Shown: one piece after another, positions 512 through 60,803 of the stretch
Layout of the letters: the number at the start of each line of letters is the position of its first letter
Position numbering within the stretch: the stretch's first letter is position 1
From: a virus
DNA: 64,000 nucleotides
Reading direction: 5' to 3' (one strand)
IMG/VR virus record: IMGVR_UViG_3300037011_001068
Coordinates: 32,001-96,000 of that record
The notes under the pieces: generated by a model
Database searches by the model: none
What the model was told of the DNA's origin: nothing
Seen by the model: only the letters and a program-made list of their open reading frames with translations
Translations under genes and position numbers: made by a program

Positions 512-775
512 ATGGGTAGAGCAGTCAGGGAGCCTTTTTTAGGGGGTGCAGGCCGAAAAAAGACAGACACGCGGATCCCAGAGCCTCTTGTGGAGGTCCT
601 CAAGGAGATAGCGGTGGTCTTGGGAGTTTCGATGAACGCGGTTTTTTGCCTCTCGGTAGCGAATTTTCTTCTGCAGATGGTTCCAGTGCTCCCCGGAAGG
701 AAGCGGGCGGCGGTTTTCAAGGTGCTGGAATCTAATGTCCAGAAATTGCTAGAAGACATTCGATCGAAGCTTTAG
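512..775 (+). CDS. small ribbon-helix-helix-like DNA-binding protein
   Basis: TDTRIPEPLVEVLKEIAVVLGVSMN fits an RHH pattern; GAGGA RBS upstream. Confidence 0.55.
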   Translation: MGRAVREPFLGGAGRKKTDTRIPEPLVEVLKEIAVVLGVSMNAVFCLSVANFLLQMVPVLPGRKRAAVFKVLESNVQKLLEDIRSKL

Positions 776-1017
776 ATATTTCCCAAAAAAAGGCTAGTGT
801 TTCCTTGAGGAAAACGGTTCTTTGATTGTGTACTCTTGAGGCATTTTGCCCTATTTTCATTCTAACCCTCCGATTCTTCATCAAAAAAATTTTTAGAATA
901 TTTTGCTTTACAACTGCTGGGGGGTTCGTTACTGGTAAGGGGCGGGATCGTTTTTGGGATATCGCAGATAGGCATTTTGACCCCCTGCTCCAGGGGGGTC
1001 GGAAAGGGACGTGTGGC

Positions 1018-1527
1018 ATGGAGATTCCATCTTCTATTGAGACTTACATCCGGAAATTGAGTGGGCAGCTTGGATGCTACCTGGGTTTAGATGTTTCGGG
1101 GTGCGATCGAGAGGATTATGAGGCGCGGTTGCGCTTGCACGCTCTCGAGGTCCTTCGCAAAGTGCGTCCAGAAATTGCAGGGGAAGCGCTCGAAAAGTAT
1201 TTGGGGAAGGCGCTGTACTACCGTTCGATGGATTTTTTTCGCGAACGGCGCCGTTTTCCAGCGGCTAAGGATCTTGTGCCAGTTACTGATTTTATCGTGG
1301 GGTATTACGATTCTGTGGCGCGTTTGGATGCGCGGAAGGCCCTAAAAATTCTTCATGAGAATCTTTCTCCAGTGGATTGGCGTCGCCTATGGGCCGTTGC
1401 TCAAGGAGCGACAGCTCAAGAGGCGGCGAGGGGGCGGCTGAGGAGGTTTTCCTTGCAGACTCAGCGAGCCAAAATTCGGGAATCCCGGAGAAAGGCGAAA
1501 AAGATTCTGGATGCTTTTCGATGGTAG
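1018..1527 (+). CDS. sigma-70/ECF-like phage sigma factor
   Basis: DREDY...YLGKALYYRSMDFFR resembles region 2 and LSPVDWRRL...TAQEAA resembles region 4; ATG at 1018 preferred over 826. Confidence 0.5.
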   Translation: MEIPSSIETYIRKLSGQLGCYLGLDVSGCDREDYEARLRLHALEVLRKVRPEIAGEALEKYLGKALYYRSMDFFRERRRFPAAKDLVPVTDFIVGYYDSVARLDARKALKILHENLSPVDWRRLWAVAQGATAQEAARGRLRRFSLQTQRAKIRESRRKAKKILDAFRW

Positions 1528-1566
1528 AGCGTTAAGGTATACAGGAAGGATGAAGTCCAGAAAATC

Positions 1567-2736
1567 GTGGAGGAAAAAATGGGTGCTCAAACCCCCGAAT
1601 GTTACGGAATTCTTTGGGATGGCAGTCCTGAGGGAGAGTGCTTGCGATGCCAAGTCCAGGCAGACTGCTTGGATGTTTTCACTCTCCAGGAGCTTCCAAA
1701 ACTGAAAGCGAAGGCAGGACCTAATTTTTCGGTGGAGAAATTGGCAATGCTGGCGGGGGTGCCTGAGGCGGCAATAGAAATCGCTCTCCAGCGTGAGGCG
1801 CGAGAACCTGTAACTCCCCCAGGATTCGCAGCTCAGCTGGTGGGTCCTACTTCGCCTCTTCCGCACTCGCCAGCATCGTCTCAACGTGTGGATCTCGATT
1901 TTGCTGAAGAGGGATCCGAAGGAGAAGAGGAGCCTGAAGAGGAGCTTGAGGGGGAGGGTGCGCGGGGATTAGAGAAACCAGCGCATCTAGTCATTGAGGC
2001 TTTTCCGGAGAAGCCGGGGGAGCCTGAGGAAACAAAGTTTGTGAAGGAGGAGGTAATGCCCCGTAAAAGAGGGCGCCCGCGAAAGGTGCCACCGACCCCG
2101 CTTCTCGAAAAGAAGGGGGGCAAGAAAGAGAGCCCGCTGAAGCATCTTGCTACGCGGACCCCAGCGTCGGAGCTCCCTCCGGAGCCCAAGAAGTCTGCTC
2201 TGGAGGCTAAGAAGGGTACTCCGGTGGTGGGAAAAGGAAGAAAGAAGGAGCCGGTCAAAAAGCCGGAACAACTTCCCCGCCCTTCGAGGGCCCGATCTGC
2301 CAAGCCTGTGGTGGATCGGGCCGGGGACAGACAGGCATATGCCAGGAGTGTAGCGGAGCTGGCAGAAATAGCACTCAGAAAGAAGGAAGCGATCCCGCAG
2401 TGGGAATGGGGCTCGGATCACGATCAGAGCCGATTTTTTCGGGAACGGAAGAGGAGCCGGATCATTGCCCTCCTGACTCCGGGGATGAAAATCCTCCGGG
2501 AATGGGAGGGGCGGATCTACGAGGTCCTGGTCCAAAAAGACGGATACCGGTTTGCAGGCAAAAAATATCCCACCCTGTATGCAGTCAGGATTGCGATAAC
2601 GGGGAGGCGATGGACCCTGAAACAAACGAGGGATGGGAAGAGGAGCCCGGGTCTTCGCCCGACAGGGAATTGCGGGGCAGTAAGATGGTTCCAGTTGGAG
2701 AAATTTCTGGAGAAGAGAGGAGTTTCTTTGACCTGA
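1567..2736 (+). CDS. protein with N-terminal Cys cluster, AT-hook (KRGRPRK) and C-terminal DUF2924-like domain
   Basis: CYG..C..C.....C at the N-terminus; PGMKILREWEGRIYEVLV..DGYRF.GKKY.TL.A...AITG.RW matches my recollection of the DUF2924 consensus. Confidence 0.6.
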   Translation: MEEKMGAQTPECYGILWDGSPEGECLRCQVQADCLDVFTLQELPKLKAKAGPNFSVEKLAMLAGVPEAAIEIALQREAREPVTPPGFAAQLVGPTSPLPHSPASSQRVDLDFAEEGSEGEEEPEEELEGEGARGLEKPAHLVIEAFPEKPGEPEETKFVKEEVMPRKRGRPRKVPPTPLLEKKGGKKESPLKHLATRTPASELPPEPKKSALEAKKGTPVVGKGRKKEPVKKPEQLPRPSRARSAKPVVDRAGDRQAYARSVAELAEIALRKKEAIPQWEWGSDHDQSRFFRERKRSRIIALLTPGMKILREWEGRIYEVLVQKDGYRFAGKKYPTLYAVRIAITGRRWTLKQTRDGKRSPGLRPTGNCGAVRWFQLEKFLEKRGVSLT

Positions 2737-2970
2737 TCGTGGATTTGCGAAAAGCGCAATTTCAGATCGTGTACTGGCCAGCTTATCCAGCGCTTTTGAC
2801 TTTTGGAAATTGTAGGATTCTTCAAGTAGGCGGTTATAGTGACTATTTCCAAAAGTACGTGAAGCTTGTACCGGAAAAAACAGGGGAGCCGGGTGTCGTT
2901 GAGGTTCTCCTCGAGGAGCTCGCAGCCTTGCCAGGTGCAATAGGTCCGGCTTTAGAGGCTCTTTTCGCGA

Positions 2971-3201
2971 ATGCCCAATCCTTCCTCAAAAAAAGTTAGG
3001 TGGCGCGTCCGGGTTCCAATTGTCGGCCTGGCAGAGGCGGACGTGTGGGCGCGGACGCGAGAAGAAGCGGAAGAGACCCTGCGGGGCACTTCCCCTCTTT
3101 CTGTCCTTCGGGGCTCTCTTTCGCTTCTTCGCTTAGGGTATAATTTCGAGGCGGCAACGGTGGAATGTGCAGGGGGATCTCCTGATGCCGATGCAGATTA
3201 A
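2971..3201 (+). CDS. hypothetical protein
   Basis: Short ORF overlapping both neighbours in an operon-like arrangement. Confidence 0.45.
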   Translation: MPNPSSKKVRWRVRVPIVGLAEADVWARTREEAEETLRGTSPLSVLRGSLSLLRLGYNFEAATVECAGGSPDADAD

Positions 3202-6019
3202 TCCCCATCAATGCACTTCGGGGGCTTTGGACACCGGATCGCCCGATAAGGAAATCGTGTGGCGAATGGATCAGGTTGGGCCGATGGTTCGCTTTCTTCA
3301 GGCGAGCCCCATTTTAATTTTCGATTTTGAGACCTCTGGGCTGGCGTATTTTCGGGATGCTGCGGCTTGTGGCATTGCCTTGGCGGGAGTGGATCAGGAG
3401 GGCCAGAGGCGCTCTTATTATGTGCCTTTCAGGCATGCGACCATTTTTCGCCAGCTCCCTATCGAGGTGGTTTCCCAGGGGGTGGCGCCGCTTCTCGCGG
3501 ATCCGAATAAGCTGAAGATCGCGCACCACATTAAATTCGATGAGCACATGGCGCGGCGGGAAGGATGGCGCGTGGAAGGGAAGCGCTATGACACCATGAT
3601 TGCCGCGCACATTGCGGATGAAAATAAGCCTATAGGATTGAAAAGTCGTGCGATGAGCGATCTGCATCGAAATGATGCAGATTATTGGGAAGGTCGTGTT
3701 GATGCGGAAGTTCGACAGCTCGCAAAAAAAGAAGGTCTTGGGATCGCTGCTTATCGTGAAAAATATGGTTATTCTCAGGTGCCACTTCCGATCGTTGGTC
3801 CATACGCATGCTTGGATGTGGAGCTCACGCATGAGCTCTACAAGCTTTACGAGAAAAATGGGCTTTCTTCTTTTTATGGGCCCATTTTCAGCACTGAATC
3901 CAAGCTCACGGGAATTCTCTGCGAAATGGAGGAGGAGGGCCTTCCCATCGATGTGCCTTACGTCCAGAAATTGAGGGAAAATCTTGTGGCGGTGCAGGCT
4001 CAATTGCTGGATTCTATTTTTCGGATAATTCCTGGGAAGCGTTTTAATTTGGCGTCCGATCAGGAGCTCCGTGATTTTTTGACTTGCGATCTGCGGCTCC
4101 CTCTCCACAAATTAACGGAGAAGGAACAGCTTGCGGTGGATGCGGAGGTCCTCGAGGAATTTTCTGCAGCTCATCCAGCAATTTCATTTATTTTGCAATG
4201 GAGAGAAGCGGAAAAAATTCGGAATACCTACACCACGTCTATCCTCTCTCGGTTGGATCGGAATAATATTCTGCACCCGGATTATCAGCAAGTCGGGACG
4301 GTGACTGGTCGGCTTGCTTGCAAATCCCCGAATTTTCAAAATCAGGTGAGGGATGATGATGATCGAGCAAAGAAGCACAGTGGGAAGGGGCTCAAGGAAG
4401 GGGGTGTGGATCCCTGGTCAGTCCGGAGGGCGTATGTTAATCGTGGGCCCGGTTGGGTGCGGTTATTTTTTGACTATTGTTTACATCCTTCGACGTTAGT
4501 GGAGACGGTTGCGGGAAAGCGGGCTTTGGGAGATCTTAAACCTAGGGATAGGGTTTTCACTTGTCGGAATATGGAGATTTCGAGTGGTGAGGTTTCTCGA
4601 GCAGTTCGGATCGGGAAACTCCCCGCTTACAAGATCAATTTCGATAATGGGGAAAGCGTAATTGCTTCTGTGGATCATGAGTGGCCTGTGGCGATTATAA
4701 AAGGTCAGCAGTTTTATCAGATTAAAAGAAAGACGGAGAATCTTCAGGAGGGCCAGTGGGTATTATCTGCGAAGTTGACTGAAAAGGGATGTATATATGA
4801 TGATAGGGTTAGCTCCATTGAATATGTAGGTTTACAAGAGATGTTTGCGATCACAGTGGAGCCTGATCATAATTATATTCTTGGGTGCGGGGTGGTTACC
4901 TGTAATTCTCAAATCGAATTGAGGGTTTTGGCTCATTATTCTCAGGATCCCACTTTGGTTGAGGCGTATCTTACCGGGGAAGATATTCATTCCAGGACTT
5001 CGATGGAGGTTTTTGGGAATAAGTCTTCTCGCCAGCTCGCGAAGATTCTTAATTTCGGCCTTTGTATTGCTGGTGGGCAGAAGGTCTTGACGCGCCAAGA
5101 TGGCCTTGTGCCGATTGAGCAAGTGCAGGATAGGCATTTTCTCTGGGATGGCGTTGATTGGGTTAGACATGCTGGCCTAGTATGCCGGGGGGAAAAGGGT
5201 GTCGTGACGTATGAGGATCTCACTGCGACGCCAGAGCATTTGGTTTTTTTGAAAGGTGGCCGATCTATTCCGATCGGATGCCTTGCATCCTCTATTAGTT
5301 CTGGGCGTCTTGCTCTTGGCGCGGTTGGAGAGGATCCCGTTAAATATTTTGCAGCTTATGGGCCACACTGGTATGCGATAGAGAATTCAGGTTGTGAGAG
5401 CTGCATGAGTTGTTCGCCATGCTTGAAGACAGCAGTGGTATATGATCTTCTGGATGCTGGCCCGCGAAATAGATTTACGGTTGAGGGGAAAATTGTGTCT
5501 AACTCCTATTGTATGTCGGCGATTGGTTACAGCCGCAACGCCAAGATCCCTCAAGAAGAGGCTGAAAAGCACATGGCTCAGTTTTTTGCTCGGTATAGCG
5601 GTATTAAACCCTTTCGCGAGAAACTATGGGCGGAAGTGCAGAGTCAGCGGGGTTATTTCCAGAATATTTTTGGGCGACCCCGAAGAGTGATCGGAATTCT
5701 TTCTCCGGGACGGCAGGCTGTATCGAGGGCTCGCCGGCAGATTATCTCGACCTTGATTCAAGGTACTGCAGCCGAGCTCACGAAAGAGAGCCTTTGCCGG
5801 ATTCATGATTTTTTGCGAGCAGAGAATATTCCCGCGAAGATTGTTGCGACCGTACATGATGAGATTCAGATTGATTGCCCGGTTGGGTCCTTGTCCAGAG
5901 TCGCGCGTGAGACGAAACGATTGATGGAGGATTTTTCACAGTTTGCTCCGATTCCTATCCTCGTGGATGGGCAATATTCCACGCAGAGCTGGAGCGATAA
6001 GCAATCGCTTCCACTGTGA
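3167..6019 (+). CDS. polA: family A DNA polymerase (3'-5' exonuclease + polymerase) containing two inteins
   Basis: FDFETSG (ExoI), HHIKFD, YACLD, TVTGRL, DY^SQIELR (motif A), AKILNFGL^SY (motif B), IQGTAA, VHDEI (motif C). Confidence 0.95.
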   Translation: MQGDLLMPMQINPHQCTSGALDTGSPDKEIVWRMDQVGPMVRFLQASPILIFDFETSGLAYFRDAAACGIALAGVDQEGQRRSYYVPFRHATIFRQLPIEVVSQGVAPLLADPNKLKIAHHIKFDEHMARREGWRVEGKRYDTMIAAHIADENKPIGLKSRAMSDLHRNDADYWEGRVDAEVRQLAKKEGLGIAAYREKYGYSQVPLPIVGPYACLDVELTHELYKLYEKNGLSSFYGPIFSTESKLTGILCEMEEEGLPIDVPYVQKLRENLVAVQAQLLDSIFRIIPGKRFNLASDQELRDFLTCDLRLPLHKLTEKEQLAVDAEVLEEFSAAHPAISFILQWREAEKIRNTYTTSILSRLDRNNILHPDYQQVGTVTGRLACKSPNFQNQVRDDDDRAKKHSGKGLKEGGVDPWSVRRAYVNRGPGWVRLFFDYCLHPSTLVETVAGKRALGDLKPRDRVFTCRNMEISSGEVSRAVRIGKLPAYKINFDNGESVIASVDHEWPVAIIKGQQFYQIKRKTENLQEGQWVLSAKLTEKGCIYDDRVSSIEYVGLQEMFAITVEPDHNYILGCGVVTCNSQIELRVLAHYSQDPTLVEAYLTGEDIHSRTSMEVFGNKSSRQLAKILNFGLCIAGGQKVLTRQDGLVPIEQVQDRHFLWDGVDWVRHAGLVCRGEKGVVTYEDLTATPEHLVFLKGGRSIPIGCLASSISSGRLALGAVGEDPVKYFAAYGPHWYAIENSGCESCMSCSPCLKTAVVYDLLDAGPRNRFTVEGKIVSNSYCMSAIGYSRNAKIPQEEAEKHMAQFFARYSGIKPFREKLWAEVQSQRGYFQNIFGRPRRVIGILSPGRQAVSRARRQIISTLIQGTAAELTKESLCRIHDFLRAENIPAKIVATVHDEIQIDCPVGSLSRVARETKRLMEDFSQFAPIPILVDGQYSTQSWSDKQSLPL
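4478..4906 (+). mobile_element. mini-intein (143 aa) in PolA motif A
   Basis: Begins CLHPSTLV, has block B ASVDHEW and ends VVTCN followed by Ser; removing it restores DYSQIELR. Confidence 0.9.
5063..5503 (+). mobile_element. mini-intein (147 aa) in PolA motif B
   Basis: Begins CIAGGQKV, has block B TATPEH and ends VYDLL..GPRNRFTVEGKIVSN followed by Ser; removing it restores KILNFGLSY. Confidence 0.9.
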
Positions 6020-6592: not shown

Positions 6593-8386
6593 ATGTATCC
6601 AGCAAATCCATGGCCACAGCAGGGCCAGCAACCGCAGCAGCCACAGCAATTTCAGCAACCGCAGCAATTTCAGCAACCGCAACAATTTCAGCAACCGCAA
6701 CAATTTCAGCAACCACAGCAGCCACAGCAGCCACAAGCAATTCAGGGTTCAGGGCAATTTGGTTCTCCGGTAGGCCCGATGGCGCCGGCAGGAATTCCCG
6801 ATTTTTTCGCTCCGAATGAGGAGCAGATTCAGGAGGAGTTTCGGCGGGCATCGGCAGAAGATCGGTTTAAAGGTCCACCCTTCGTGAAATTTTTGGGCCC
6901 GCAGGGACAGGCTAGATGGGATAAATCGGTCCCAGTGGGTCATAAAGACGATATTTTTGTGGCTTTTGCGCCTTGTTGGGGTCCTGGAAAGCCCTTGTTC
7001 AAAGTATCTCGGAGTCATTATTGGAAAAGCTTCCAGCATCCCAGAGGAAAATCTATCGGTTGCGCTGGTAAGGAGTGTTTAATTTGTAAAGCGAGGGAAT
7101 TGGCTCTCAATAGCCCGGATAATGCTGTGAAGGAGCGGGCAAAAGATATCGGTAGATCGCGTGTGCAAAATCTCTACAATGTATTTCTCCTTAAGAGTCC
7201 TCAATTGCATCCAGTAGATCCTATCACAGGGCTCATGCGACCGTTCATTCTTGGCGCTGGCAGGAATTTGCACGCTGAAATTTTTAATCTAATCGACGGT
7301 CGGGGGGGTGCAATGGCTCTCATAAATCCCAGCCATCTCCGTCCTGTGCGGATCACAAAAATTAAGAATGGTGAAGACGAGAAGGATGTTGAATATAAGT
7401 TAATTGATTACGATCCTATTGTCCTTCCACGAGAATTTTGGGGAGCACTATCGAATCTTTGGGATTTAGATGCCTTAGAGAAGCTGGTGAGTCCGGAAGA
7501 TCAAATTAAGGTGATCCAGGAGATGCAATTTCCACTTCCTCCCGGGGTTTTTCCAGGCATGTCGGCTCCTCAAGCTCCTCAAGCTCCTTCTGGATGGGCT
7601 CCTCAAGCTCCTCAAGCTCCTCAAGCTCCTTCTGGATGGGCTCCTCAAGCTCCTCAAGCTCCTTCTGGATGGGTTCCTCAAGCTCCTCAAGCTCCTCAAG
7701 CTCCTTCTGGATGGGCTCCTCAAGCTCCTCAAGCTCCTTCTGGATGGGTTCCTCAAGCTCCTCAAGCTCCTCAAGCTCCTCAAGCTCCTTCTGGATGGGC
7801 TCCTCAAGCTCCTCAAGCTCCTCAAGCTCCTTCTGGATGGGCTCCCTCCCAAACTCCTTCCCAAACTCCTTCTCAGGCTCCTTCTGGATGGTCCCCTCAA
7901 GCCCCTTCTGGATGGTCCCCTCAAGCTCCTCAAGCTCCTTCTGGATGGGCTCCTCAAGCTCCTCAAGCTCCTCAAGCTCCCTCTGGATGGGGGGCTCCTG
8001 TTCCTCCTCCAATGACTCCTCCCCCGGTGTCCTCTGGAGGAGGGGCTCCTGGGAGTTATTCTCCCCAGCCCTCGCAGGCAGGGGGGCCTGTTCCGCCGCC
8101 TGCCTACCCTATGCAGTCTCCTGGGGGTTTCGGGGATCCTTTTGCTAGTCAGCAGGCGGCTCTTCCGGGGCAAGCGATTCCGTGGCCTTTTCCTGCGGGT
8201 TTTTCTTTGCCGGACGGCAGAGAGCGTTGTTATAGTCGTTTTCATGCCGAGCATACTTTCTGCCGTCAATGCCCCGGGTGGATTCAGGCGCAATGCCAAT
8301 TGTTGGCTCGGTCTATGCTTGGTTCCGGAGGGGCGCCAAAGCCGACCTTAGAGGCGTTGCAGGCGCAGCTATCCGGCAAGGTATAA
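6593..8386 (+). CDS. gp32-like single-stranded DNA-binding protein with Q/P-rich low-complexity arms and a C-terminal Cys cluster
   Basis: SHYW...CAGKECLICK Zn motif, NLYNV and ITKIKNG...VEY form an OB-type core; directly upstream of recA. Confidence 0.65.
   Translation: MYPANPWPQQGQQPQQPQQFQQPQQFQQPQQFQQPQQFQQPQQPQQPQAIQGSGQFGSPVGPMAPAGIPDFFAPNEEQIQEEFRRASAEDRFKGPPFVKFLGPQGQARWDKSVPVGHKDDIFVAFAPCWGPGKPLFKVSRSHYWKSFQHPRGKSIGCAGKECLICKARELALNSPDNAVKERAKDIGRSRVQNLYNVFLLKSPQLHPVDPITGLMRPFILGAGRNLHAEIFNLIDGRGGAMALINPSHLRPVRITKIKNGEDEKDVEYKLIDYDPIVLPREFWGALSNLWDLDALEKLVSPEDQIKVIQEMQFPLPPGVFPGMSAPQAPQAPSGWAPQAPQAPQAPSGWAPQAPQAPSGWVPQAPQAPQAPSGWAPQAPQAPSGWVPQAPQAPQAPQAPSGWAPQAPQAPQAPSGWAPSQTPSQTPSQAPSGWSPQAPSGWSPQAPQAPSGWAPQAPQAPQAPSGWGAPVPPPMTPPPVSSGGGAPGSYSPQPSQAGGPVPPPAYPMQSPGGFGDPFASQQAALPGQAIPWPFPAGFSLPDGRERCYSRFHAEHTFCRQCPGWIQAQCQLLARSMLGSGGAPKPTLEALQAQLSGKV
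6617..6740 (+). repeat. tandem repeat encoding (Q)PQQF units
   Basis: cagcaaccgcarcaattt units repeated about 4 times, with PQQ flanks. Confidence 0.9.
7565..8000 (+). repeat. coding minisatellite built from gctcctcaa and gctccttctggatgg units (APQ/APSGW)
   Basis: Directly visible tandem repeat of about 430 bp. Confidence 0.95.
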
Positions 8387-18667: not shown

Positions 18668-19627
18668 ATGCTGCGATTAGATCAAGACAAGGTTCGGGGG
18701 GTGGTGTTCGGGGTGGCAGTGGGGGATGCAATCGGATACCCTGTTGAGTTTCTTTCCAGAGATCAAATCCGAGAGGTTTGTGGGGGTTCGCTTCAGGGAT
18801 ACCTTCGTCTGGTGGATGGGGTGGCGGAGTATTCCGACGACACTCAGATGTTTTTGGCTGTTCTCCGAGGCCTTCTGAGGGCTATTGGGGGCAAGCTCTC
18901 GGTGGATTGGGATAGCATCCACCTGGCGGTGGCTGAGGAGCTTATTGCTTGGGGGAAATCTTCAGAGAATAACCGGGCTCCAGGAGCGGCGTGCATGTTC
19001 GGGGTCCATAACCTAGCCACGGGGGTTCATTGGAGGGAGGCTGGGAAGGTGCATGCTGGTGGGTGCGGGGCAGCCATGCGCTCCATGGCCTACGCTCTGG
19101 TATTTGATGTTCAGGCGGCCTGGGAGACCGCCAGGGCGCATGCAGCCATGACCCATAGGTCTCCTTCAGGGGAAGCCTCTTCGGCAGCGGTAGCAGCTAT
19201 CACAGGGCTTCTCCTGCGGGGCAAGAAACCTACGGACGCCTGTCTTCAGGGTCATATTATTGCGCGGCGCATTGATCCTTTGACCGGGCAGCTCATCTGG
19301 GAGGCGATCGAGGCATCGCAGGAGATTCTTGAGGGGTCCTTATCGGGGGTGGGCCCTCGGATGGTGGAGCTCCTGGACAAATGGCGGGGCTGGACGGGCC
19401 ATGAGGCGGTGGCCGCCTCGGTTCTGTGCTTCTTGGTTTCTCGGTCTTACCGCGAGGCTGTTCTGTGGGCGGTGAACAGCTCCGGGGATTCGGATTCTCT
19501 GGGGGCCATAACGGGGGCTTTCGCGGGGGCCCATTGGGGCTTTGCTTCTATCCCGCATGCTTGGGTGGGTAGGATCGAGAATCGATTAGGGTTAGAGAAG
19601 ATAGTGGAGTCCGCTTGTGAGGGGTGA
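18668..19627 (+). CDS. ADP-ribosylglycohydrolase (DraG/ARH family)
   Basis: GVAVGDAIGYPVE, YSDDTQM, GCGAAMR, MTH, GDSDSLGAITGAFAGA. Confidence 0.93.
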   Translation: MLRLDQDKVRGVVFGVAVGDAIGYPVEFLSRDQIREVCGGSLQGYLRLVDGVAEYSDDTQMFLAVLRGLLRAIGGKLSVDWDSIHLAVAEELIAWGKSSENNRAPGAACMFGVHNLATGVHWREAGKVHAGGCGAAMRSMAYALVFDVQAAWETARAHAAMTHRSPSGEASSAAVAAITGLLLRGKKPTDACLQGHIIARRIDPLTGQLIWEAIEASQEILEGSLSGVGPRMVELLDKWRGWTGHEAVAASVLCFLVSRSYREAVLWAVNSSGDSDSLGAITGAFAGAHWGFASIPHAWVGRIENRLGLEKIVESACEG

Positions 19628-20231: not shown

Positions 20232-20238
20232 GTGGAGA

Positions 20239-20493: not shown

Positions 20494-20584
20494 GGTTTTC
20501 CGACCCGAGGCGGAACCTTCGGGGTGCTCTTTAAAAATGCTCCATGTTGCACAATCAGCCGTGGCCCCGGGTGACGGGGCATTT

Positions 20585-47942: not shown

Positions 47943-48135
47943 GCCAGGATTCCAGAGTACATGCCCCCAATGCGGGGGAGTGGCTGTCACGCGATGCCAA
48001 TGCCCTTGCGCGATTTCTATCTGCTCAGAGGGACACACATGGTACGCGAGCGCGTGGGGAAGAAAATATCGAGTGCATGGTAGCGCTGAAAAAGCGGAAA
48101 AGTCTATCGAGGTGCCGGATGCTCCTAAGTCCTAG
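47929..48135 (+). CDS. small Cys-rich protein
   Basis: CPQCGG...CQC....CSEGHTWY...GRKY..HG. Confidence 0.55.
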   Translation: MYMDEPGFQSTCPQCGGVAVTRCQCPCAISICSEGHTWYASAWGRKYRVHGSAEKAEKSIEVPDAPKS

Positions 48136-52922: not shown

Positions 52923-55900
52923 ATGCTCGCTACACAGCTCACGGCTCCTAAATGGGTCCATACGTCTTTTCAGAAGGCTGGCGTGAAAACCAAGCCCATG
53001 AAACTCGGGTTGGGAAGCTGGAAAGGCTTGAGCATCATTGCCATTGGGCCCAAAGGGGGCCGTATCATTGGGTATGGGCGTTTCCACAAGGCCATTTATG
53101 CTGGTAGTGCTATCGCCGAGCATTTGGTCGCTTTGCGAGAAGAGGCGGCTGCTTCCAAAAAGTGGACCCCCAGCACAGAAATCCAGAAATTAGTGGAGTG
53201 GCTTACTGAGCTCGGGATTGACGGGAAGGCCTTTAAGGATCGGGTGGAGGTGGAGGAGGACGCTGGAAAGCTTCTCGGTCAGTCTTTCAGTGTTTACGGA
53301 AATACTGAACCTGGAAAGAAGCTCAGCTTCAAGGTAGCAGAGCTCCTCCCGCATATCGGTGAGCCCTTGAAGCCCGCTGAGAATGAAGCGCTCTCCTACG
53401 CGGCCGAGGTGGCGAGTGGGCAGTTCCAGGAGGAGAAGCTCTTCCCGGATCTGAAGACGCTTGAGCCCGTGCCTCTTGAGGGGGTGTATGCGAAATATGC
53501 TGGGAGCCACGGGAACAAGCTCTTTCGGGATCCAGAGGAAAGGCTCTGGATTTTCAAGGCCGCGAACCCCATTATCGCTCGAGCAGAGGAGGCAGCTAAT
53601 CGGGTTGGGCGACACATCCTCGGGGACAAGTTTCCGCCCGCCAAGTACGTCCAGCTCGGAGGCAAGGATGGTGTCTTGATCGGGGAAATGCTCGGCGAGG
53701 TATGGCAGGAATCGAGCGCCATGCATTCTCACCCCCCTCTGAATCTTCTCAAAGAACATCGGCTTGAAGTGCTCCAGCATGAAATTCTGGATTGGTTGCT
53801 CGCGAACCACGATAGTCACGCCGGCCAGTTCCTTTCGCATGAAGGGGAGCTCATTGCAATCGACAAAGGGCAGGCCTGGAAATGGATCGGTGAGGACACT
53901 TTTCATCCTGGGTTCAAGGGGCAGAATCCAAGCGATCCGATTTACAAGAAATTTTGGGAGCAGGTGAAGTCTGGGAAGATTTCGAGCGAAGGTTTCGTGG
54001 AGGCGGCGCTCGAGGTTATTGAGCGATGGCGGCAGATCCCTGTAGAGCAGTTTCGCTCGATCGTCGCTCCTTACGTGGTTACCTTGGCAGGGGGGACGCA
54101 CAAGGAGCCCGAAGAAATCGCTAAGAAGCTTGAGGCTCGCTTCCTGTCCTTGGCGAAGGACGTGGAGGGGTTTTTGAGCGGGCAGCTCGGGCAAGTAGTC
54201 TCCTTCGGGGGCGTGCAGCCTATCGAGCCTACGACCGAGACTCTGCCTTCCCCTCTGAAGCTTGCACCCTCTCCCAAAGAGCCGGAATTGCCCATTCAAG
54301 CGATTCCAAAGCCCCCCCTGGCTGGACCCCTCTCCGTGGCAATAGAGCCCTCCTCTGCCCTTTCCGTGGCTTCTCAGTGGCCCATCACGAAAGGCAACGA
54401 AAAGGGGAAGGTGACTGTGACTTCTCCGGGCGTGAAGCCTCCTGCGAGCTGGCCGGCGGGAATCCCGGGGGCAGGGTTTATGCAGGACATCGTTTACAAA
54501 AAGGAGGCCTACAAGCTTTCCATTTTCGAGAAAGGCGGGAAGGTATCCTTCTTGATTCAGTACCCTGACGGCACGTCGAATACGTGGCCTTCCATCAATC
54601 AGGCAGGGGATTCTTTGTACCTGTACGCGAATAAGCTTCCCATTTCCATGGGGGCCAAGGATAAAAAAGAGAAGGGGATTTCTCTGGGTTCCAAGGTCTT
54701 TCGGTTCGAGCAATTCAAGGCGGAGCTCGAGGCTGCTTATGGAATGCCTTCCGTGGCGGTGGAGAGCCCCCCTTCCAAGGCGAAAAGCATAAAGCCGCTT
54801 GCGGAGTCGATTACGGTCCAGACCCCCAAAGAGCTTGAGCAGGCGAATATCATTGAACCGGGGCAAAAGAATCTCCCCTTTTATGAAGTGGCAGAGAAAC
54901 TTCCCGCGTGGGAAGAAGTCGATCCTTCGGTGATGCCTCCAGAGGTACAGGAATTGATCGATCAAATGGATGCGAGTATAACCTCTTATCCTGATGTCTG
55001 GGATGCAGCGATCTTTCCTGGAAAAGTGGTTAAGATTTTATTGAATACTACGGGAAAGCCAGGGTTCTTAATTGGGGATGTAAAGCAAGGAAAGCCTGTT
55101 TATCATATTTATAAGCAAGATCCCCAGGGGAACTATACGATAGGCTCTCCGATGAACGCGGAAATTTACGATACTGGCTTTGATTTGTATTCAAAGCTTG
55201 GATCGAAAGGGCTAGAAGAGGAACCTTATGATCCGTTGAAGGTGCTTATGGAAGGACCAAAGGCAGGGAAGGAAAAACCTTCGGAAGATAATTTTGAGAC
55301 TATGCCGGAAAAAGAAGCGCAGCCGATCCAATTTTCTGGAAAGACGGCAAATGAACACATGAAGGTCGCGGTAGCGTTACCGGCCGGGACGATTATAACG
55401 CTCACTCCAGCAAAATGGCCGGATGTACCTACAGTGAATTTCGTCAAGAATGAAAAGGGATCGTGGCACCCTTTTGATACGGCAACGCAGGCTCCACTGG
55501 AAAAAGAAATTTTTTCATCCAATATGATTGGAGTAATTGTCAATAGCATGCTCAAGAATGGCGGCTTGGTTGTGCATTCTATGGGTGCTATCAAGAAGCC
55601 CGCACCCAGCAACTTTGAGACTATGCCTGAATCTGTGTATCAGCCAAAAGCTGGAGTGCCGAAGCTTGCAGATATAGAGTCGGCGGAAGAGGGGGCGGAG
55701 ATCAAGTTACAAACAGAAGGGCAGGATGCTCCCACGGTTTTTACTAAGACCCAGGGAGAGTGGTGGGTATTGAATCCTGGAGCCAATAAGCATGAGAAGG
55801 TGACTTTTTCGGAGGTGTTCCTAGCGGATGTTTTGGACACGGCGAGTCAGAATTCCAATATTACAGTCAAAGGAATGAGTTTAGGGCAGGAAAAGAAGCC

Positions 55901-58900
55901 TGCTCCGGATAACTTTGAGACCATGCCGGAAGGGTTGCCTACTGAATTTAAACCAAATAAATGGAAAAATTCTCAAAAAATAGTAAATGCTCTTTTGCTC
56001 GCTCCTCTTGATACTAAGCTTGAAACGAGTAAGTATATCGCTACGCTTGTTCCTACACTGGGTGGAGGAAATGTTTGGTATATAAAATATAAAGATGCTG
56101 CTTACGGAGAGGATGTTACAAGTTCCCATTCTTCGATGGCATGGGATATTTCTATTCTTAAAGAACCTATGAAAGTTATTCTTCCGGAAAAAGTAGAAGA
56201 GCTTCCTGAATTGAAGACCATGGAAGAAAAACAAAATTTTTGGAAAGATCAACCATGGGGTGGAACGTTGGAAGTTTGGTCTGTAAATCCTTCTGGAGAT
56301 CTTTTTTCTTATGCACCGCTCGGGACCGCTATTGCCGCTCCAAAGCCGGGGGATGCTTCAGGCATGGCTTTAACAATTTGGCATAAAGGTAAAGGTGACC
56401 ACTGGTATACTATAGGTTATGCAATAAGCTCACAGGCACTTTCTACACTACTCCAACCTATTGTAAAAGCAAAAAAGAAGGCTCTCATCCTAAAAGGAGC
56501 TCCTGCTATTGCTGGCCTTATTAAAGATTGGCCCAATATTCAGAACATCACGCAAGACATTCCAATCAAGAATCCCTCGAAAATATTTCCAGGATTTTTG
56601 AGTGTAGCTCCTTTGGGAGCTCGCCTTACTTCTTATAAGCTCTCTACTGGCGGGAAAGTGGAGAGTCAGATGTTTGTAAAAGAAGATGGGGAAAATTGGA
56701 AAAATATCTTTACGCAAGATATTATAAATAACTATTTTGTAACTCAGCTCATGAATACGCAGGATGAAGTTTTTATTTATCTAGGAGGTATTCCTGGGAG
56801 CACTCCAAAGCCAACAATAAAAAAACTTGTACCTAAGCTCGTGCATGCCAAGGATGCAATAAAAATGCATGAGGCAATCAAAGCTTCAGGTGGTACGCTC
56901 AAGATCAAACCTAACTCCACTGATTCAACGGTGGCCTATGTTTGTTTGGACAACGTGATAGAGGGAGATGCGGCAAAAATACTGAATTCTGCGCTTTTGG
57001 AATTAAACCTTTCCCAGCATGTCTTGAATTTTCAGCAGTATCCTAAAACGAATAAATTCGGTGCTTTTGTGGCGATTCCTTTTTCCCATCTAGAAAATCC
57101 CGTGGAGATACAGGTGGAGGAGGGTGAACAAGTTCCTTCTGAACCGCCTGATCAAGTGGAGGAAAAGCCCCAGAAAAAAAAGCCTAAGAAGCTCTCCAAA
57201 AAAGAAATCCAGAAAATGGCTGCAGCAAAGCAAAAAATCGAAGAGCAGAAGGTATGGGCAATAGCGCACCCGACGGTGAAGGATCCAGAAACCTTCCTTC
57301 TCCTCGCGCACTTCCAGAAGCACATGGATAAGTGGTTTTCTGAAAGTCCCTGGTATGCGCGGGTGGAAAACGAAGGGGAGACCATCTTCCTGCAGCCGAA
57401 GAGCTTCCCTGAAGATTTTCCGGCGGTCATGAAAAAGCAGTTCCCTCTTGCGGAACAGGTGGAGACCATCCATGGGCCCATGATGCGGGTCTCTCTCCAG
57501 TCGCTCCGGGATCGCTATCCCGAGGCGCTCCCCGTAAAAGGCCCGGATGGTAAGCTCTATCCTGTGGGGACCACTTTCCAGACTGAAAAGACTTCGGTGA
57601 CCGTGGGGGACCTTTTAAAAACCGAGCCTGGATTCCATAGCATGGTCCCGCATACCTCTATGCCGGATTACATGGTGCTCAAAGTGGCTGGAACGGGAGC
57701 GAGCCAAAAAGAGCAGCTACATGCTATCGTCCAGAAATTTGGGTTACACCCACTTTTCACAGAGCCGAAACAAACATCGAGCTCCTGGATGCATTATTTT
57801 CTCAAGAAAGAGATCGATAATTCATGGAAAGAGGAGGAGAAGCTCGTGGTGCTCCCTGGGGAATCCCCCTCTCCCCTTCGCCTGGCTCCTTTGCCCTCGG
57901 GGACGACCACCACGGAGCATTGGGGGGAAGTGGGGGATAATCGTGCGGAGCTCGGGTTGTTGGAAGCTGTGAAAATTCCTTTGTACGGACACGTAATTCG
58001 GATTGGCAAACCGGGGATACTGACAGATTTTCAGGTGAACATCCGAAAAGTGAAGACCCTTTCAGGGGATCTTGTTTACGAGGTGACAGGAGATCTTCTC
58101 GAGTTCAAGGCTCAGTCCAGCAAATTGAATCCTACCTCTAGTATTCCTCTGACTTCGGCAGCTTCGCAATTGTTCGCGCCTTTGGGAAAATTAAAGACCA
58201 TTGAATACGATGCAGAGACCGGGGTGCATGACGAAAGCAAGAGCCCTGGGGAGATCATGAGCCTCTCTGGTTTTCAAGGAACCGTGCGTGATGGAAAAAC
58301 CGTGGTCCAGGTGATTCAAGATCCTTCTCAGCAAACCATGAATGGCACTTTCAAGGTGCGAATCCCGGTGGGGGATAATGTGGAGGAAGCACTCGGCGAA
58401 GCTTTTGAAGCGATGGGTTACAACGCCGCGGAGGCACTCTCCCCTATCGATGAAAAAAGCGATCGGATTTTTAAAAAGTGGTCTATCCTTCGCTCGACAT
58501 TAGGACCATTGGCTTTTGGGCAGTCCGATGCTGCTATACCACGGAAGCAGCGGCATGATGAGAAGTACCTGGATACACAACTTGATAAACTCGGCGTCCA
58601 GAAATTGGTTCCTACCGCGAAGGTACAGCGGATTTTTCAAAGCAAAGTCACGGTAACGGTAGCGGGTGAAGAGCATTTCAAGGAGCATTGGTCTTGCCCT
58701 TATGTGGGAACAAAATTTCCTTCCGTCATAATTCAGCTCGCGCAGGGTGCTGGGTGGGCAAGTCGAAAAGAGCGTTATCTGAAGGGTGTAGATACGGATG
58801 GAAAAAGTAAAGGTGAGGATTTTCAGACTGGCGGGGCTGCGGGTGTTTTTTGCCGTATCGCTGGGTCACAGGCAAAGATCAATCCAGCGTATGCTTATAA

Positions 58901-59273
58901 TGTAGTATTCCATCCTCGCTTGTTTAGACGAACAGACTGGTATCACTATAATGATGATCATTTTGGCGTGATTGCTCCTAATACCTTCAACACCATGGGT
59001 CCGCAGAAGGGAAGGTTGAGTGCAGGACCTATCACTAGCGTAGGAAATGAGATCATCTTTCAAGGGGGTATGGACATTCGAGATATCGTAGGAATCATGT
59101 GTACGAGCCCTGAATCGGCAACTTCTTTGAAAGAGAAGCTTATCAGCATGGGAATAACAGAGATCAATGGGGCTTCATTAGATGCTGCAATTAAGTACAT
59201 TCCGCCGTATGAAACAACAGGCAGCAAATTTTTAAAGGTATTTCACATCAAAGAAGATCCAGAGGAGGCATGA
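52923..59273 (+). CDS. giant polyvalent protein with a HipA/PI3-4-kinase-like domain, tandem small domains and a possible C-terminal ART-like domain
   Basis: GSHG...WIFK...AEEAA...DWLLANHDSHAGQFL...IAIDKG kinase motifs; three NFETMPE linkers. Confidence 0.7.
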   Translation: MLATQLTAPKWVHTSFQKAGVKTKPMKLGLGSWKGLSIIAIGPKGGRIIGYGRFHKAIYAGSAIAEHLVALREEAAASKKWTPSTEIQKLVEWLTELGIDGKAFKDRVEVEEDAGKLLGQSFSVYGNTEPGKKLSFKVAELLPHIGEPLKPAENEALSYAAEVASGQFQEEKLFPDLKTLEPVPLEGVYAKYAGSHGNKLFRDPEERLWIFKAANPIIARAEEAANRVGRHILGDKFPPAKYVQLGGKDGVLIGEMLGEVWQESSAMHSHPPLNLLKEHRLEVLQHEILDWLLANHDSHAGQFLSHEGELIAIDKGQAWKWIGEDTFHPGFKGQNPSDPIYKKFWEQVKSGKISSEGFVEAALEVIERWRQIPVEQFRSIVAPYVVTLAGGTHKEPEEIAKKLEARFLSLAKDVEGFLSGQLGQVVSFGGVQPIEPTTETLPSPLKLAPSPKEPELPIQAIPKPPLAGPLSVAIEPSSALSVASQWPITKGNEKGKVTVTSPGVKPPASWPAGIPGAGFMQDIVYKKEAYKLSIFEKGGKVSFLIQYPDGTSNTWPSINQAGDSLYLYANKLPISMGAKDKKEKGISLGSKVFRFEQFKAELEAAYGMPSVAVESPPSKAKSIKPLAESITVQTPKELEQANIIEPGQKNLPFYEVAEKLPAWEEVDPSVMPPEVQELIDQMDASITSYPDVWDAAIFPGKVVKILLNTTGKPGFLIGDVKQGKPVYHIYKQDPQGNYTIGSPMNAEIYDTGFDLYSKLGSKGLEEEPYDPLKVLMEGPKAGKEKPSEDNFETMPEKEAQPIQFSGKTANEHMKVAVALPAGTIITLTPAKWPDVPTVNFVKNEKGSWHPFDTATQAPLEKEIFSSNMIGVIVNSMLKNGGLVVHSMGAIKKPAPSNFETMPESVYQPKAGVPKLADIESAEEGAEIKLQTEGQDAPTVFTKTQGEWWVLNPGANKHEKVTFSEVFLADVLDTASQNSNITVKGMSLGQEKKPAPDNFETMPEGLPTEFKPNKWKNSQKIVNALLLAPLDTKLETSKYIATLVPTLGGGNVWYIKYKDAAYGEDVTSSHSSMAWDISILKEPMKVILPEKVEELPELKTMEEKQNFWKDQPWGGTLEVWSVNPSGDLFSYAPLGTAIAAPKPGDASGMALTIWHKGKGDHWYTIGYAISSQALSTLLQPIVKAKKKALILKGAPAIAGLIKDWPNIQNITQDIPIKNPSKIFPGFLSVAPLGARLTSYKLSTGGKVESQMFVKEDGENWKNIFTQDIINNYFVTQLMNTQDEVFIYLGGIPGSTPKPTIKKLVPKLVHAKDAIKMHEAIKASGGTLKIKPNSTDSTVAYVCLDNVIEGDAAKILNSALLELNLSQHVLNFQQYPKTNKFGAFVAIPFSHLENPVEIQVEEGEQVPSEPPDQVEEKPQKKKPKKLSKKEIQKMAAAKQKIEEQKVWAIAHPTVKDPETFLLLAHFQKHMDKWFSESPWYARVENEGETIFLQPKSFPEDFPAVMKKQFPLAEQVETIHGPMMRVSLQSLRDRYPEALPVKGPDGKLYPVGTTFQTEKTSVTVGDLLKTEPGFHSMVPHTSMPDYMVLKVAGTGASQKEQLHAIVQKFGLHPLFTEPKQTSSSWMHYFLKKEIDNSWKEEEKLVVLPGESPSPLRLAPLPSGTTTTEHWGEVGDNRAELGLLEAVKIPLYGHVIRIGKPGILTDFQVNIRKVKTLSGDLVYEVTGDLLEFKAQSSKLNPTSSIPLTSAASQLFAPLGKLKTIEYDAETGVHDESKSPGEIMSLSGFQGTVRDGKTVVQVIQDPSQQTMNGTFKVRIPVGDNVEEALGEAFEAMGYNAAEALSPIDEKSDRIFKKWSILRSTLGPLAFGQSDAAIPRKQRHDEKYLDTQLDKLGVQKLVPTAKVQRIFQSKVTVTVAGEEHFKEHWSCPYVGTKFPSVIIQLAQGAGWASRKERYLKGVDTDGKSKGEDFQTGGAAGVFCRIAGSQAKINPAYAYNVVFHPRLFRRTDWYHYNDDHFGVIAPNTFNTMGPQKGRLSAGPITSVGNEIIFQGGMDIRDIVGIMCTSPESATSLKEKLISMGITEINGASLDAAIKYIPPYETTGSKFLKVFHIKEDPEEA

Positions 59274-59608
59274 TGGACTTGTCCAAGGTCTATGAAATTC
59301 AGGTGCCTCGTGGGAAACCCTTCGGTCCACTAATTGCCGAGGTGAGTCAGAAGCCCGGGGGCCTTGAGCTTCTTACCGAGAATGGAATTCGATTTCTGGA
59401 TTTCGAGGACATCGATGAGCAGCTTATCGACGATGAAGCGCAAGGGGTAATCGAGATTCACTACCCAGATCGCCGGGTGGTACTTCAGAAAATCACCCTT
59501 GCCACTTGGGCGGACGTGGATCCTTTTTTGGGAAGAAAATTTCCGCTTGTGACCTCGGATGAAGCGCTCACCCAGGAGCTCCGAGAGTGGCTGGAGGATT
59601 CTCCATGA
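59270..59608 (+). CDS. small acidic hypothetical protein (possible partner of the upstream protein)
   Basis: GGAGG RBS; ATGA overlap. Confidence 0.55.
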   Translation: MMDLSKVYEIQVPRGKPFGPLIAEVSQKPGGLELLTENGIRFLDFEDIDEQLIDDEAQGVIEIHYPDRRVVLQKITLATWADVDPFLGRKFPLVTSDEALTQELREWLEDSP

Positions 59609-59811
59609 GATGCCCTCATTGTAAAAATCATGTGCTTCAGAAGAGCGGAGAGCGCACAAAACTGCGGATCCAGGGCCCCGTATTTTTCGATCGGCAGGGG
59701 AAGTGCAAAGCTACCTGTTTCTGGTGCAAAAGTGAAGTGGAGCTTCCCCTTCGGCTGCTCGGGGGAGTGCCTATCGAGAGCGAGACCTTTTTGCTTCCGA
59801 CAAGAGGTTGA
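59605..59811 (+). CDS. zinc-ribbon protein
   Basis: MRCPHC...CFWCK. Confidence 0.65.
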   Translation: MRCPHCKNHVLQKSGERTKLRIQGPVFFDRQGKCKATCFWCKSEVELPLRLLGGVPIESETFLLPTRG

Positions 59812-59836
59812 CAGATTTCTGGACCTTTTTTATTCT
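59808..59836 (+). promoter_or_regulatory. putative promoter for the protease-scaffold-capsid operon
   Basis: TTGACA-N17-TATTCT; the spacer contains GATTTCTGGA, the reverse form of the recurrent motif. Confidence 0.55.
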
Positions 59837-59945
59837 AAGGGCAGATTAAGGAATAGCTGTACGGTTGGCCCGGGTAGGATCCGTGAGGGATCGGTAGGGG
59901 CAAGCGATAGTATCGTTTGCCCCTTTGCCGTTTCGAGGTGGAAAA

Positions 59946-60803
59946 ATGGAAGGTGAGCTCCCGTTCGATGTCGAATTTCCCTTCTCCGTTTTTGAAAAAG
60001 CGGATGAAGAGCCAGGGAAGAGAAAACGAATCGGCGGTATTGCCTCGATCGAGACCCGGGACCGGCAGGAGGAGACCGTTCTTCAGAGAGGTTTGGATTT
60101 TTCAGATTTCGCGAAAAATGGTTGGTTCAACGATAATCACTCCAAAGATACCGCGGGAGTCGTAGGATATCCCGATGGATCTACTGAATTTTTTCGCAAA
60201 GGTCAGCGATTACCTAGCGGAGAAATCGCGAAAGCTTCCGGGCATTGGGTGGAGGGTTATTTGCTGGATACTCCGCGGGCCAATGCGATCTGGGAGCTCG
60301 GAAAAGCACTCCAGAAAACGCAACGTCGGCTTGGTCTTTCGGTGGAGGGAAAAATTCTGCAAAGAACCGGGCCACAGTTAAAGACGATTGCGAAGGCCCT
60401 GGTCCGAAATGTGGCTATCACGAATTGCCCCGTAAATACTTCCGCGCGCATGGAAATTCTGGCTAAGAGCCTTAAAGCCGCGGAGCAATGCGAAAGCGAT
60501 CTGGCCAAGACCCTGGGTATGGGTGTTCCAGCAATTGGGGCTGGGGGCGGAGTGGTTCCACCGGCCAGCATGGGGCCTCAAACGGGTATGGGTGCAGGGC
60601 AGGTGATTGCCCGGGAATCGCTCGAGAGCAAGCAGCACCCGCCAAAGAAGATCGGAAAGAAAAAAAAGATTAAATTCCGGAAGTCTTTTTCGCATATCGA
60701 AGCGATCCATTGGCTTCGCGCTCAACTTCCGCATGCTTCGGCGGAACAAATCGAGCGCTTGCTAGAAACCACCCGGCGACTAAAAAGCGCTGGAAAACTG
60801 TAA
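59946..60803 (+). CDS. prohead protease
   Basis: IGGIASIETRDRQEE, FNDNH, VGYP, LGLSVEG, NVAITNCPVN (SPO1-like protease pattern). Confidence 0.88.
   Translation: MEGELPFDVEFPFSVFEKADEEPGKRKRIGGIASIETRDRQEETVLQRGLDFSDFAKNGWFNDNHSKDTAGVVGYPDGSTEFFRKGQRLPSGEIAKASGHWVEGYLLDTPRANAIWELGKALQKTQRRLGLSVEGKILQRTGPQLKTIAKALVRNVAITNCPVNTSARMEILAKSLKAAEQCESDLAKTLGMGVPAIGAGGGVVPPASMGPQTGMGAGQVIARESLESKQHPPKKIGKKKKIKFRKSFSHIEAIHWLRAQLPHASAEQIERLLETTRRLKSAGKL

Follow-up and report, generated by a model that had tools for sequence, protein, structure and literature searches.

A clade-private DNA word near saturation in the genome of an uncultured tailed phage, and a candidate phage protein that may read it

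What keeps one short DNA word at dozens of copies in the genome of a phage? The question is raised by a 64-kb stretch of DNA (the window), which comprises bases 32001–96000 of a 105,756-bp virus record (IMG/VR record IMGVR_UViG_3300037011_001068) and belongs to an uncultured tailed phage. The word is the 10-mer TCCAGMAATT, in which M is A or C. It is real, private to a clade of phages, spelled in different dialects by the members of that clade, close to saturation in coding sequence, and gathered before certain genes in clusters of boxes that are conserved between relatives. We infer that a phage protein reads the word, that this is most plausibly a 385-amino-acid protein of the replication module with a DUF2924 domain, and that the genome-wide copies serve the phage chromosome as a whole.

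Within the window, between positions 738 and 60536, TCCAGMAATT occurs in 42 exact copies, 31 on the + strand and 11 on the − strand. The original prediction had counted about 40; all the coordinates it listed are correct, and a single minus-strand copy (26258) was overlooked. Dinucleotide-preserving shuffles of the window (n = 100) produce a mean of 0.69 copies and a maximum of 4. The whole 105.7-kb genome carries 64 exact copies (44 on +, 20 on −), 58 of which are coding and 6 intergenic, and these fall in every frame, both sense and antisense, which bears out the earlier reading that the word is used in different frames and in intergenic DNA. Shuffling synonymous codons within genes leaves 9.3 ± 1.7 copies, and shuffling codon order leaves 6.6 ± 0.8. 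Since both totals contain the 6 unshuffled intergenic copies, the coding expectation is only ~3 (synonymous) or ~0.6 (codon order), compared with 58 observed. The enrichment thus persists against codon-preserving backgrounds, and the word is selected at the DNA level, as had been proposed.

The edges of the word are sharp. Nearly all of its one-mismatch neighbours are present in 0–3 copies genome-wide, the exceptions being TCCAGAAAAT (13/3), TCCAGAAATC (4/9), TCCAGAATTT (0/6), and TCCAGAAATG (1/3). The minimal enriched core is TCCAGMAA, with 139 copies genome-wide, and in the same genome TCCAG[AC]A[CGT] and TCCAG[GT] stay at background. A stricter measure than the shuffles is the number of opportunities, defined as each position where a choice among synonymous codons could write the word without changing the encoded protein. 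The 10-mer is realised at 74% of sense and 40% of antisense opportunities, while control words fill 3–5% of theirs and the fraction in a distant word-free relative is 2–6%. Antisense and sense copies are equally enriched, although the + strand carries nearly all genes. Gaps between copies are Poisson-like (coefficient of variation 0.99), with neither a preferred distance between neighbouring cores nor even spacing. Nothing but primers and unrelated sequences came up when the literature was searched for the word in four spellings.

Relatives of the phage were gathered by searches anchored on the portal protein and on the large terminase (TerL). The syntenic, word-bearing relatives have proteins that are 40–70% identical and GC contents of 43–66%, and they carry dialects built on the core TCCAGA. 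The dialect of relative G001 is TCCAGAAA(TT), with 40 copies in 51 kb, and that of G008 and G010 is TTCCAGAAA. In G008, a complete genome, TTCCAGAAA occurs 112 times and TCCAGAA 198 times, compared with 7 for a reversed control, and 92% of sense and 68% of antisense opportunities for its own 9-mer are filled. Our phage and G008 each fill just 14–22% of the opportunities for the dialect of the other. Further dialects are GTCCAGCAA in G011, TTTCCAGA in loci L001, L075, and L097, and CGTCCAGAA in L063. No such enriched word was found in the relatives G009, L100, and L102, and a GAGCTC-type word takes the place of the TCCAGA-type word in L137 and L138. Between G001 and our phage, 9 of 39 sites are at exactly orthologous positions, compared with 2.0% of background 8-nt windows (p = 6e-8), with aligned codons sharing 54% nucleotide identity. 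G010 is labelled a ‘provirus’ in IMG/VR; its homology to our phage reaches both contig ends, with no host flank. The G009 contig ends before a contiguous block that is consequently missing from it, which makes comparisons of gene presence and absence uninformative there.

Other repeats were observed among these genomes. Palindromes of the CGAGCTCG type are strongly enriched in some relatives that are free of the TCCAGA word (loci L137, L138, L081, and L123); L137, for instance, has 29 copies of GAGCTCGA in 21.5 kb where 2.2 are expected. They may represent a different private word of a sister lineage. GAGCTC is also among the commonest hexamers of our phage genome, with 119 copies. A distant 124-kb relative, G003 (L041-L047), has ~18 copies of a ~19-base element, CAGCCGCTACAAATACGGG. 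This repeat is of another kind, longer and strictly confined to one strand.

One gene stands out in a ranking of the genes of each genome (~100 per genome) by how many cores the 120 nt upstream of them contain. It is the orthologue of the gene at window 1579–2736, whose upstream region alone takes first rank in G008 and again in G010. Four boxes are found there in each genome, two inverted and 8 bp apart, then after ~30 bp two direct and 10–11 bp apart, and lastly a ribosome-binding site and the start codon ATG. Between the two genomes, the boxes have been kept and the spacer sequence has diverged. Our phage has two facing boxes 5′ of the gene (1507–1565), namely CTGGA at 1507–1511 and TCCAGAAAAT at 1556–1565, the latter 13 nt before the ATG. 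Direct arrays also occur near the replication genes of the relatives. The AT-richest region of G010, which is near the GC-skew minimum and upstream of the helicase gene, contains four direct boxes with 8/11/11-bp spacing, and the equivalent AT-richest region of G008 contains two direct boxes with 11-bp spacing. The AT-richest region of both genomes is at the same syntenic place as bases 26,740–27,385 of our phage genome (L061:2740-3385), which precede the window and form its largest intergenic region, AT-rich and with long A/T runs. This region contains an element, GGGTAAAATTTCTCGA, repeated twice, as well as GCGCGC-rich repeats. Its position at the GC-skew minimum, just 5′ of the genes for the helicase, DnaB, and primase, makes it a candidate for the replication origin, a placement made by skew and AT content only.

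The gene at 1579–2736 (+ strand) belongs to the replication module and encodes the 385-amino-acid protein, in which Pfam DUF2924 occupies the C-terminus. The protein has 614 relatives in a library of 1.8 billion proteins. AlphaFold models contain two confident domains with a long, disordered, basic linker between them. The N-terminal domain consists of four conserved cysteines (Cys4) and then three helices, with a predicted local distance difference test (pLDDT) score above 90. Almost all of its structural alignments are with DNA-binding domains of the helix-turn-helix (HTH) type (sigma factor domains, DeoR, IclR, MarR, Fis, and NtrC), and 8x6g_H matches best (Z 5.9, root-mean-square deviation (rmsd) 2.7, 52 residues aligned). 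The top match of the C-terminal domain is the SAND domain of MPND (7ydt_A; Z 5.2, rmsd 3.5, 72 aligned) and the second is the DNA-bound C-terminal domain of CcrM (6pbd_B; Z 5.1, rmsd 3.6, 71 aligned). These two matches represent one fold class, because CcrM's C-terminal domain has been described as SAND-like and DNA-binding (PMC6787082). The linker of our protein contains the AT-hook KRGRPRK. The G009 orthologue (L150:9619-11049) has five tandem AT-hooks (KRGRGRPPK), and its DUF2924 domain is in a different reading frame from the N-terminal part, which could reflect either a programmed frameshift or an assembly error in the repeats. We considered whether AT-hook number might vary with the AATT tail of the dialect and dropped the idea, as there is no clean covariation and G009 combines five AT-hooks with no word. 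The ESM Atlas gave no usable match for the DUF2924 protein, and a word-index homology search with it returned only itself.

The explanation that we regard as the best, held tentatively and at a little under even confidence, is that the word is read on double-stranded DNA by a sequence-specific DNA-binding protein of the phage, with the 385-amino-acid protein as the best candidate, and that it would act as an operator, in iteron-like arrays, and as a mark on the chromosome. TCCAGMAATT would then be the dialect in which this phage spells a clade-private word with the core TCCAGA. The putative reader, with its HTH-like domain, basic AT-hook linker, and SAND-like DUF2924 domain, would bind the clustered boxes before its own gene as an operator. 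In the relatives, the box array that lies in AT-rich DNA upstream of the replication genes could be used in an iteron-like manner, and in our phage the reader may also occupy the boxes before accessory genes and at the parA promoter. Selection on the DNA would have driven the single coding boxes to near saturation, and our favoured guess is that these dispersed boxes would label the entire phage chromosome, or load it, for a function tied to replication or to protection. A duplex-reading protein fits best because both orientations are enriched, the clusters are ordered, they are kept while their spacers diverge, and the predicted folds resemble those of DNA-binding proteins. As the word forms control boxes before the gene of a DNA-binding-like protein, it is most likely the landing site of that protein, and the clusters make this product a better candidate for the reader than the ribbon-helix-helix (RHH) proteins of the window.

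Several observations count against this explanation. A binding regulator alone does not account for the filling of up to 92% of synonymous opportunities. The fold matches, at Z ~5, are below the safe level and by the rating of the tool possibly reflect only a common arrangement, and a Foldseek comparison of the DUF2924 model with the PDB returned nothing at E ≤ 0.001. Four cores in 120 nt have a chance probability of P ~0.002–0.003 per gene on density alone; the argument from box clusters is nevertheless convincing because the same gene recurs in two relatives. Boxes before the DUF2924 gene are absent in G011, where the word is present, as well as in G009, which owns the gene (in two frames and with five AT-hooks) yet has no enriched word. 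Gene ownership is therefore not sufficient for the word, and autoregulation is not universal. The ori-like AT-rich region of our phage contains 0 exact boxes where 3.6 are expected. A related idea is a self-marking system, in which the HTH, AT-hook, and SAND-like DUF2924 protein would read the word and, through the same boxes, control its own gene and the origin region. The mark would enable the replication, recombination, or protective machinery of the phage to distinguish its own chromosome from host DNA, and the dialects of sister lineages would drift apart. We consider such self-marking possible, though on the whole improbable.

The strand skew is best treated as secondary. A skew of about 3:1 towards the + strand was part of the original prediction, and it is real in the window (31:11) and also seen genome-wide (44:20), but it is not conserved in relatives. 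Over the first 25 kb, the coding 8-mers of our phage number 11+/19−, and over the 65 kb that follow they number 58+/22− (Fisher p = 0.0008), where codon-order shuffles predict about 1:1.2. The cumulative orientation minimum at 25,190 adjoins both the minimum of GC skew at third codon positions (26,177) and the large AT-rich intergenic region 5′ of the helicase, DnaB, and primase genes. The orientation in G001 splits similarly (p = 0.01). No polarity is present in G008 (78:70, p = 0.43), G010 has only a weak trend, and G011 has a different pattern. In our phage, the tail-gene region has more antisense opportunities, and the fractions realised there are equal (0.29 vs 0.28), while a two-fold sense preference remains in the middle region after normalising by opportunities. 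Orientation expectations from the synonymous shuffle are circular, since real sites partly re-create themselves. Because normalising shrank the polarity, the skew partly follows the number of sites that the proteins allow, and as the polarity does not recur in relatives, we treat it as a feature of the lineage and not as a defining one. The idea that polarity is a replication signal, which had seemed good in our phage and G001, was given up on these grounds.

Copies of the word on the + strand are in only two-fold excess within 60 nt 5′ of start codons, an excess caused by one array of small genes. A general link to promoters or ribosome-binding sites was therefore dropped, the antisense copies being equally enriched. 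The array in question is a run of small accessory genes at 20671–23159 (+ strand), which has + oriented boxes, mostly TCCAGCAATT, at its gene junctions. In successive genes, the box is placed 15–20 nt before the start codon and just 5′ of the ribosome-binding site, and there is one inverted pair (21657/21697). The run is the densest stretch of the genome, with 14 copies in ~5 kb. Two unrelated small open reading frames (ORFs) in it share a ~30-bp ending that includes a box, GATCAATCCAGCAATTTG.AAAAATAGGA (window 21651–21680 and 22303–22332), which would fit gene cassettes joined or exchanged at the box. Strain differences over window 20001–40000 comprise 0 in boxes, with only ~1 expected by chance.

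The ParA-like ATPase (29762–30400, − strand) and the adjoining RHH protein of 98 amino acids (29469–29765, − strand) form a cassette at 29469–30400 that invites a different explanation, namely a distributed centromere, in which the RHH protein would bind the boxes and the dispersed copies would serve partition of a plasmid-prophage. In type Ib partition systems, RHH proteins do bind repeated short boxes (TP228 ParG, pSM19035 omega). Both domains are present here, and directly beside the operon, in the divergent promoter region 5′ of parA (30420–30455), are three core boxes, ATCCAGAA, ATCCAGTA, and an inverted TTCTGGAT as read on the + strand, in a direct-direct-inverted arrangement with 8-bp spacing. 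The cassette, however, is located in a ~12-kb accessory block that is missing from relatives. The complete G008, where the word is denser than in our phage, encodes no homologue of ParA or RHH, and nor do any of the 79 TerL-anchored loci (0/79), of which several bear the word and span the syntenic region. With ParA as the anchor, viral contigs yielded no close relative, and with TerL as a single-protein anchor one short divergent contig came up, L062, which has neither the word nor par genes. As the cassette is absent from word-bearing relatives, the distributed centromere fails, and the word is older than the cassette and independent of it. The genome-wide recognition site of the original prediction thus remains the most likely interpretation, while its version as dispersed partition sites read by ParA and RHH does not survive. 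Its other versions, a Chi-like signal or a packaging or nucleoid-organising site, find neither proof nor disproof in these results. In our interpretation, the promoter with the parA boxes was acquired and has since come under the resident word-reader, or was filled by the same force, and the boxes are not the source of the system. The word could alternatively be common in the host, for example as an uptake sequence, a host Chi, or an architectural word, and be mirrored by the phage. Cyanophages are known to mirror HIP1 in this way, and phages of competent bacteria to mirror uptake sequences. The one metagenome-assembled genome tested, G006 (a Gemmatimonadaceae bin of 6.6 Mb with related phage contigs), has 343 copies vs 184 for the reversed control, and among the first 100 places listed, 42 are on two phage contigs of 31 kb in total (27 in 17 kb and 15 in 14 kb). 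This concentration indicates that the word belongs to the phage clade and not to the bin. The test is indirect, as binning does not prove that G006 is the host of our phage; with regard to abundance in the host, the word is thus no signature of G006. The core is also constant over relatives of widely different GC content. The partition and host-signature readings are both largely refuted, and we would give either of them only a very slight chance.

Three further explanations would retain selection or bias on the DNA and assign it to other machinery. The word could be a priming word, that is, the preferred single-stranded start or recognition site of the DnaG-type primase of the phage, its density maintained to let lagging-strand synthesis and recombination-dependent replication begin at intervals of about a kilobase. 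The phage does encode a DnaG/TOPRIM-like primase coupled to a DnaB-like helicase, and the 10-mer occurs every 1.65 kb and the 8-mer every 0.76 kb, which is within the range of Okazaki fragment lengths. In our phage and G001 the word is biased to the would-be lagging-strand template on either side of the ori-like region. Primases with longer template words exist; a template word 5′-(G/C)GGA-3′ is reported for AtTwinkle in PMC5737085, and the recognition sites of the NrS-1 primase-polymerase are the subject of PMC8718748. Against this, the polarity is absent in G008, weak in G010, and otherwise placed in G011, and the reversal in the tail region vanishes on normalising by opportunities. The primase of G009 is orthologous (44% identity), and this relative also has DnaB and PolA, yet no enriched word, so the word does not travel with the primase. 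DnaG-type zinc fingers recognise about 3 nt, not 8–10, and the inverted and direct clusters before one gene would be left unexplained, all of which makes a priming word unlikely. We judge slightly less probable still a Chi-like self mark, at which a nuclease or recombination machine (host RecBCD or AddAB, or phage SbcCD or UvsX) would be attenuated or redirected. The phage encodes a UvsX-like recombinase, SbcC, SbcD, and a RuvC-like resolvase, and a mark of which more copies are better would explain the near-saturating density. Boxes are present at the junctions of accessory cassettes, the shared ending of the two small ORFs looks as if exchanged at the word, and the strand bias in our phage and G001, ~70%, is Chi-like in size. 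A host Chi, however, should abound in the host, and G006 shows nothing beyond its phage contigs; the core is constant over relatives with GC contents of 43–66% and probably different hosts; and the polarity is not conserved among them. The enzymes of the SbcCD and gp46/47 type have no known sequence recognition, and we are aware of no sequence-recognising nuclease among them. Molecular drive, finally, would require no reader-dependent benefit, as biased repair (of the very-short-patch type) or gene conversion would turn near-matches into matches. HIP1 and uptake sequences are thought to accumulate by such drive, and the extreme saturation of synonymous opportunities, the sharp word edges, the differences in dialect between lineages, and the highest density of the word in the newest (accessory) DNA are all consistent with it. 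That one-mismatch neighbours are at chance level speaks neither for nor against it. No candidate enzyme was found, and the sites at orthologous positions and the ordered intergenic clusters point to use by a factor, for which reasons drive appears to us a rather remote explanation.

The remainder of the genome is that of a large phage with its own replication and recombination genes. About 125 bp are repeated at both termini of the 105,756-bp record, and DNA of the phage is present, as contigs, in three sediment metagenomes. In a megablast comparison of 20 kb of the phage with GenBank phages, nothing matched. The family A DNA polymerase (window 3167–6019) and the large terminase (32134–34689) each contain an intein with Intein_splicing, Hint, and LAGLIDADG signatures; the TerL proteins of relatives L001 and L062 align without the terminase intein insert. 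Portal protein, SbcC, and an SNF2 helicase are also encoded, as are a DnaB-like helicase, a UvsX-like recombinase, SbcD, a RuvC-like resolvase, and a clamp-like factor. The C-terminal part of the DnaG/TOPRIM-like primase is at window 2–496 (+ strand), the full gene spanning genome 31483–32496, and the DnaB-like helicase gene to which it is coupled is upstream. A tandem array with a 9-bp period is found at window 7568–7980, where CCTCAAGCTCC occurs 24 times on the + strand. The array is inside an ORF of 597 amino acids (6593–8386) 3′ of the polymerase gene and should encode a tripeptide repeat. Neither the primase nor the 597-amino-acid protein had a useful match against PDB sequences.

Giant polyvalent-type virion proteins are encoded around the portal gene (window 35757–41963, 48119–52471, and 52923–59273). 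The giant protein of 2068 amino acids has ddrB-like ParB and LPD1 domains of the polyvalent-protein type, that of 1450 amino acids has inorganic pyrophosphatase-like and poly(A)-polymerase head domains, and that of 2116 amino acids has zero family matches. In the accessory small-gene region, a protein of 219 amino acids (window 25061–25720) contains an Acb2/Tad1 hairpin domain (E = 2e-7) and, judged by this domain, is likely a sponge for defence signalling nucleotides. An ADP-ribosylglycohydrolase-like gene at window 18668–19627 has homologues among the TerL-anchored loci only in the word-bearing L092, L132, and L097, and G008 has one too. This co-occurrence with the word may be a sampling coincidence.

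Networks of dispersed operators have precedents in phages. For a private word that takes up most of the synonymous opportunities in a 100-kb genome and is spelled in dialects by sister lineages, we found no paper in the searchable literature. If the word is a landing site, one phage protein would have ~140–200 sites on a 100-kb chromosome, which would be among the densest sequence-specific protein-DNA networks known and would dictate codon choice in most genes. The lineage dialects amount to a series of natural experiments on a recognition code, and they provide a simple sequence marker for assigning metagenomic contigs to the clade. A testable function is thereby offered for DUF2924, a widespread uncharacterised domain. 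More generally, strong private-word signals in phages should not be taken as host signatures.

Among known systems, the stoperators of Cluster A mycobacteriophages (sites of the L5 gp71 repressor) offer an instructive comparison. They are asymmetric, about 10–13 bp long, present in dozens per genome, and lineage-specific in their variants, and some are located at short gene junctions, co-oriented with transcription. The word resembles them in being a short asymmetric site with many copies and lineage variants, and the array at 20671–23159 is likewise placed at junctions and oriented with transcription. It is only this array that fits, however, for 58 of the 64 copies in our phage are inside genes, in every frame, and 20 of the 64 are antisense. 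The word is also far denser, with up to 148 8-mers per 109 kb and 74–92% of opportunities filled. No repressor or integrase-type lysogeny module was identified in our phage, and the candidate reader is instead an HTH and SAND-like protein of the replication module. DnaA boxes and plasmid iterons, which are initiator sites found at the origin, at the promoter of the initiator itself, and dispersed, share with the word its shortness and asymmetry, the direct arrays in an AT-rich GC-skew minimum beside replication genes (G008 and G010), and the combination of boxes before one replication-module gene with many dispersed single copies. No homology to DnaA or Rep proteins was found, though, and the ori-like region of our phage is without exact boxes; to our knowledge, dispersed DnaA boxes do not come to saturate coding sequence.

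The OB operators of KorB (RK2) and the ParB and Noc sites are palindromes, number from ~12 to ~70, are mostly intergenic, and are read by HTH proteins of the ParB family. As proposed here for the word, one protein has many dispersed sites on one replicon, some of them in promoters. The word differs in being mostly asymmetric, inside genes, and several times more frequent, and the sole ParB-like domain found in our phage, in the polyvalent protein of 2068 amino acids, is not linked to it. Cluster O mycobacteriophages are reported to have dispersed 17-bp palindromic dyad repeats in about 30 copies. These are comparable as a phage-private dispersed repeat in tens of copies, while the word is asymmetric, shorter, and much denser. 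The nick-associated motifs of T5, tf, and phiKMV-type phages are single-strand motifs, unlike the word, which is on both strands. Chi, the uptake sequences (USS/DUS), and HIP1 come close in form, being 8–10-base words that occur about once per kilobase, in coding sequence and in several frames, and that are maintained at the DNA level. The thousands of host-genome copies typical of USS/DUS are not seen in G006 (343 in 6.6 Mb, for a bin that is not proven to be the host). Whereas all of these words are properties of cellular genomes, the word described here is private to a phage clade, and its dialects differ between sister phages.

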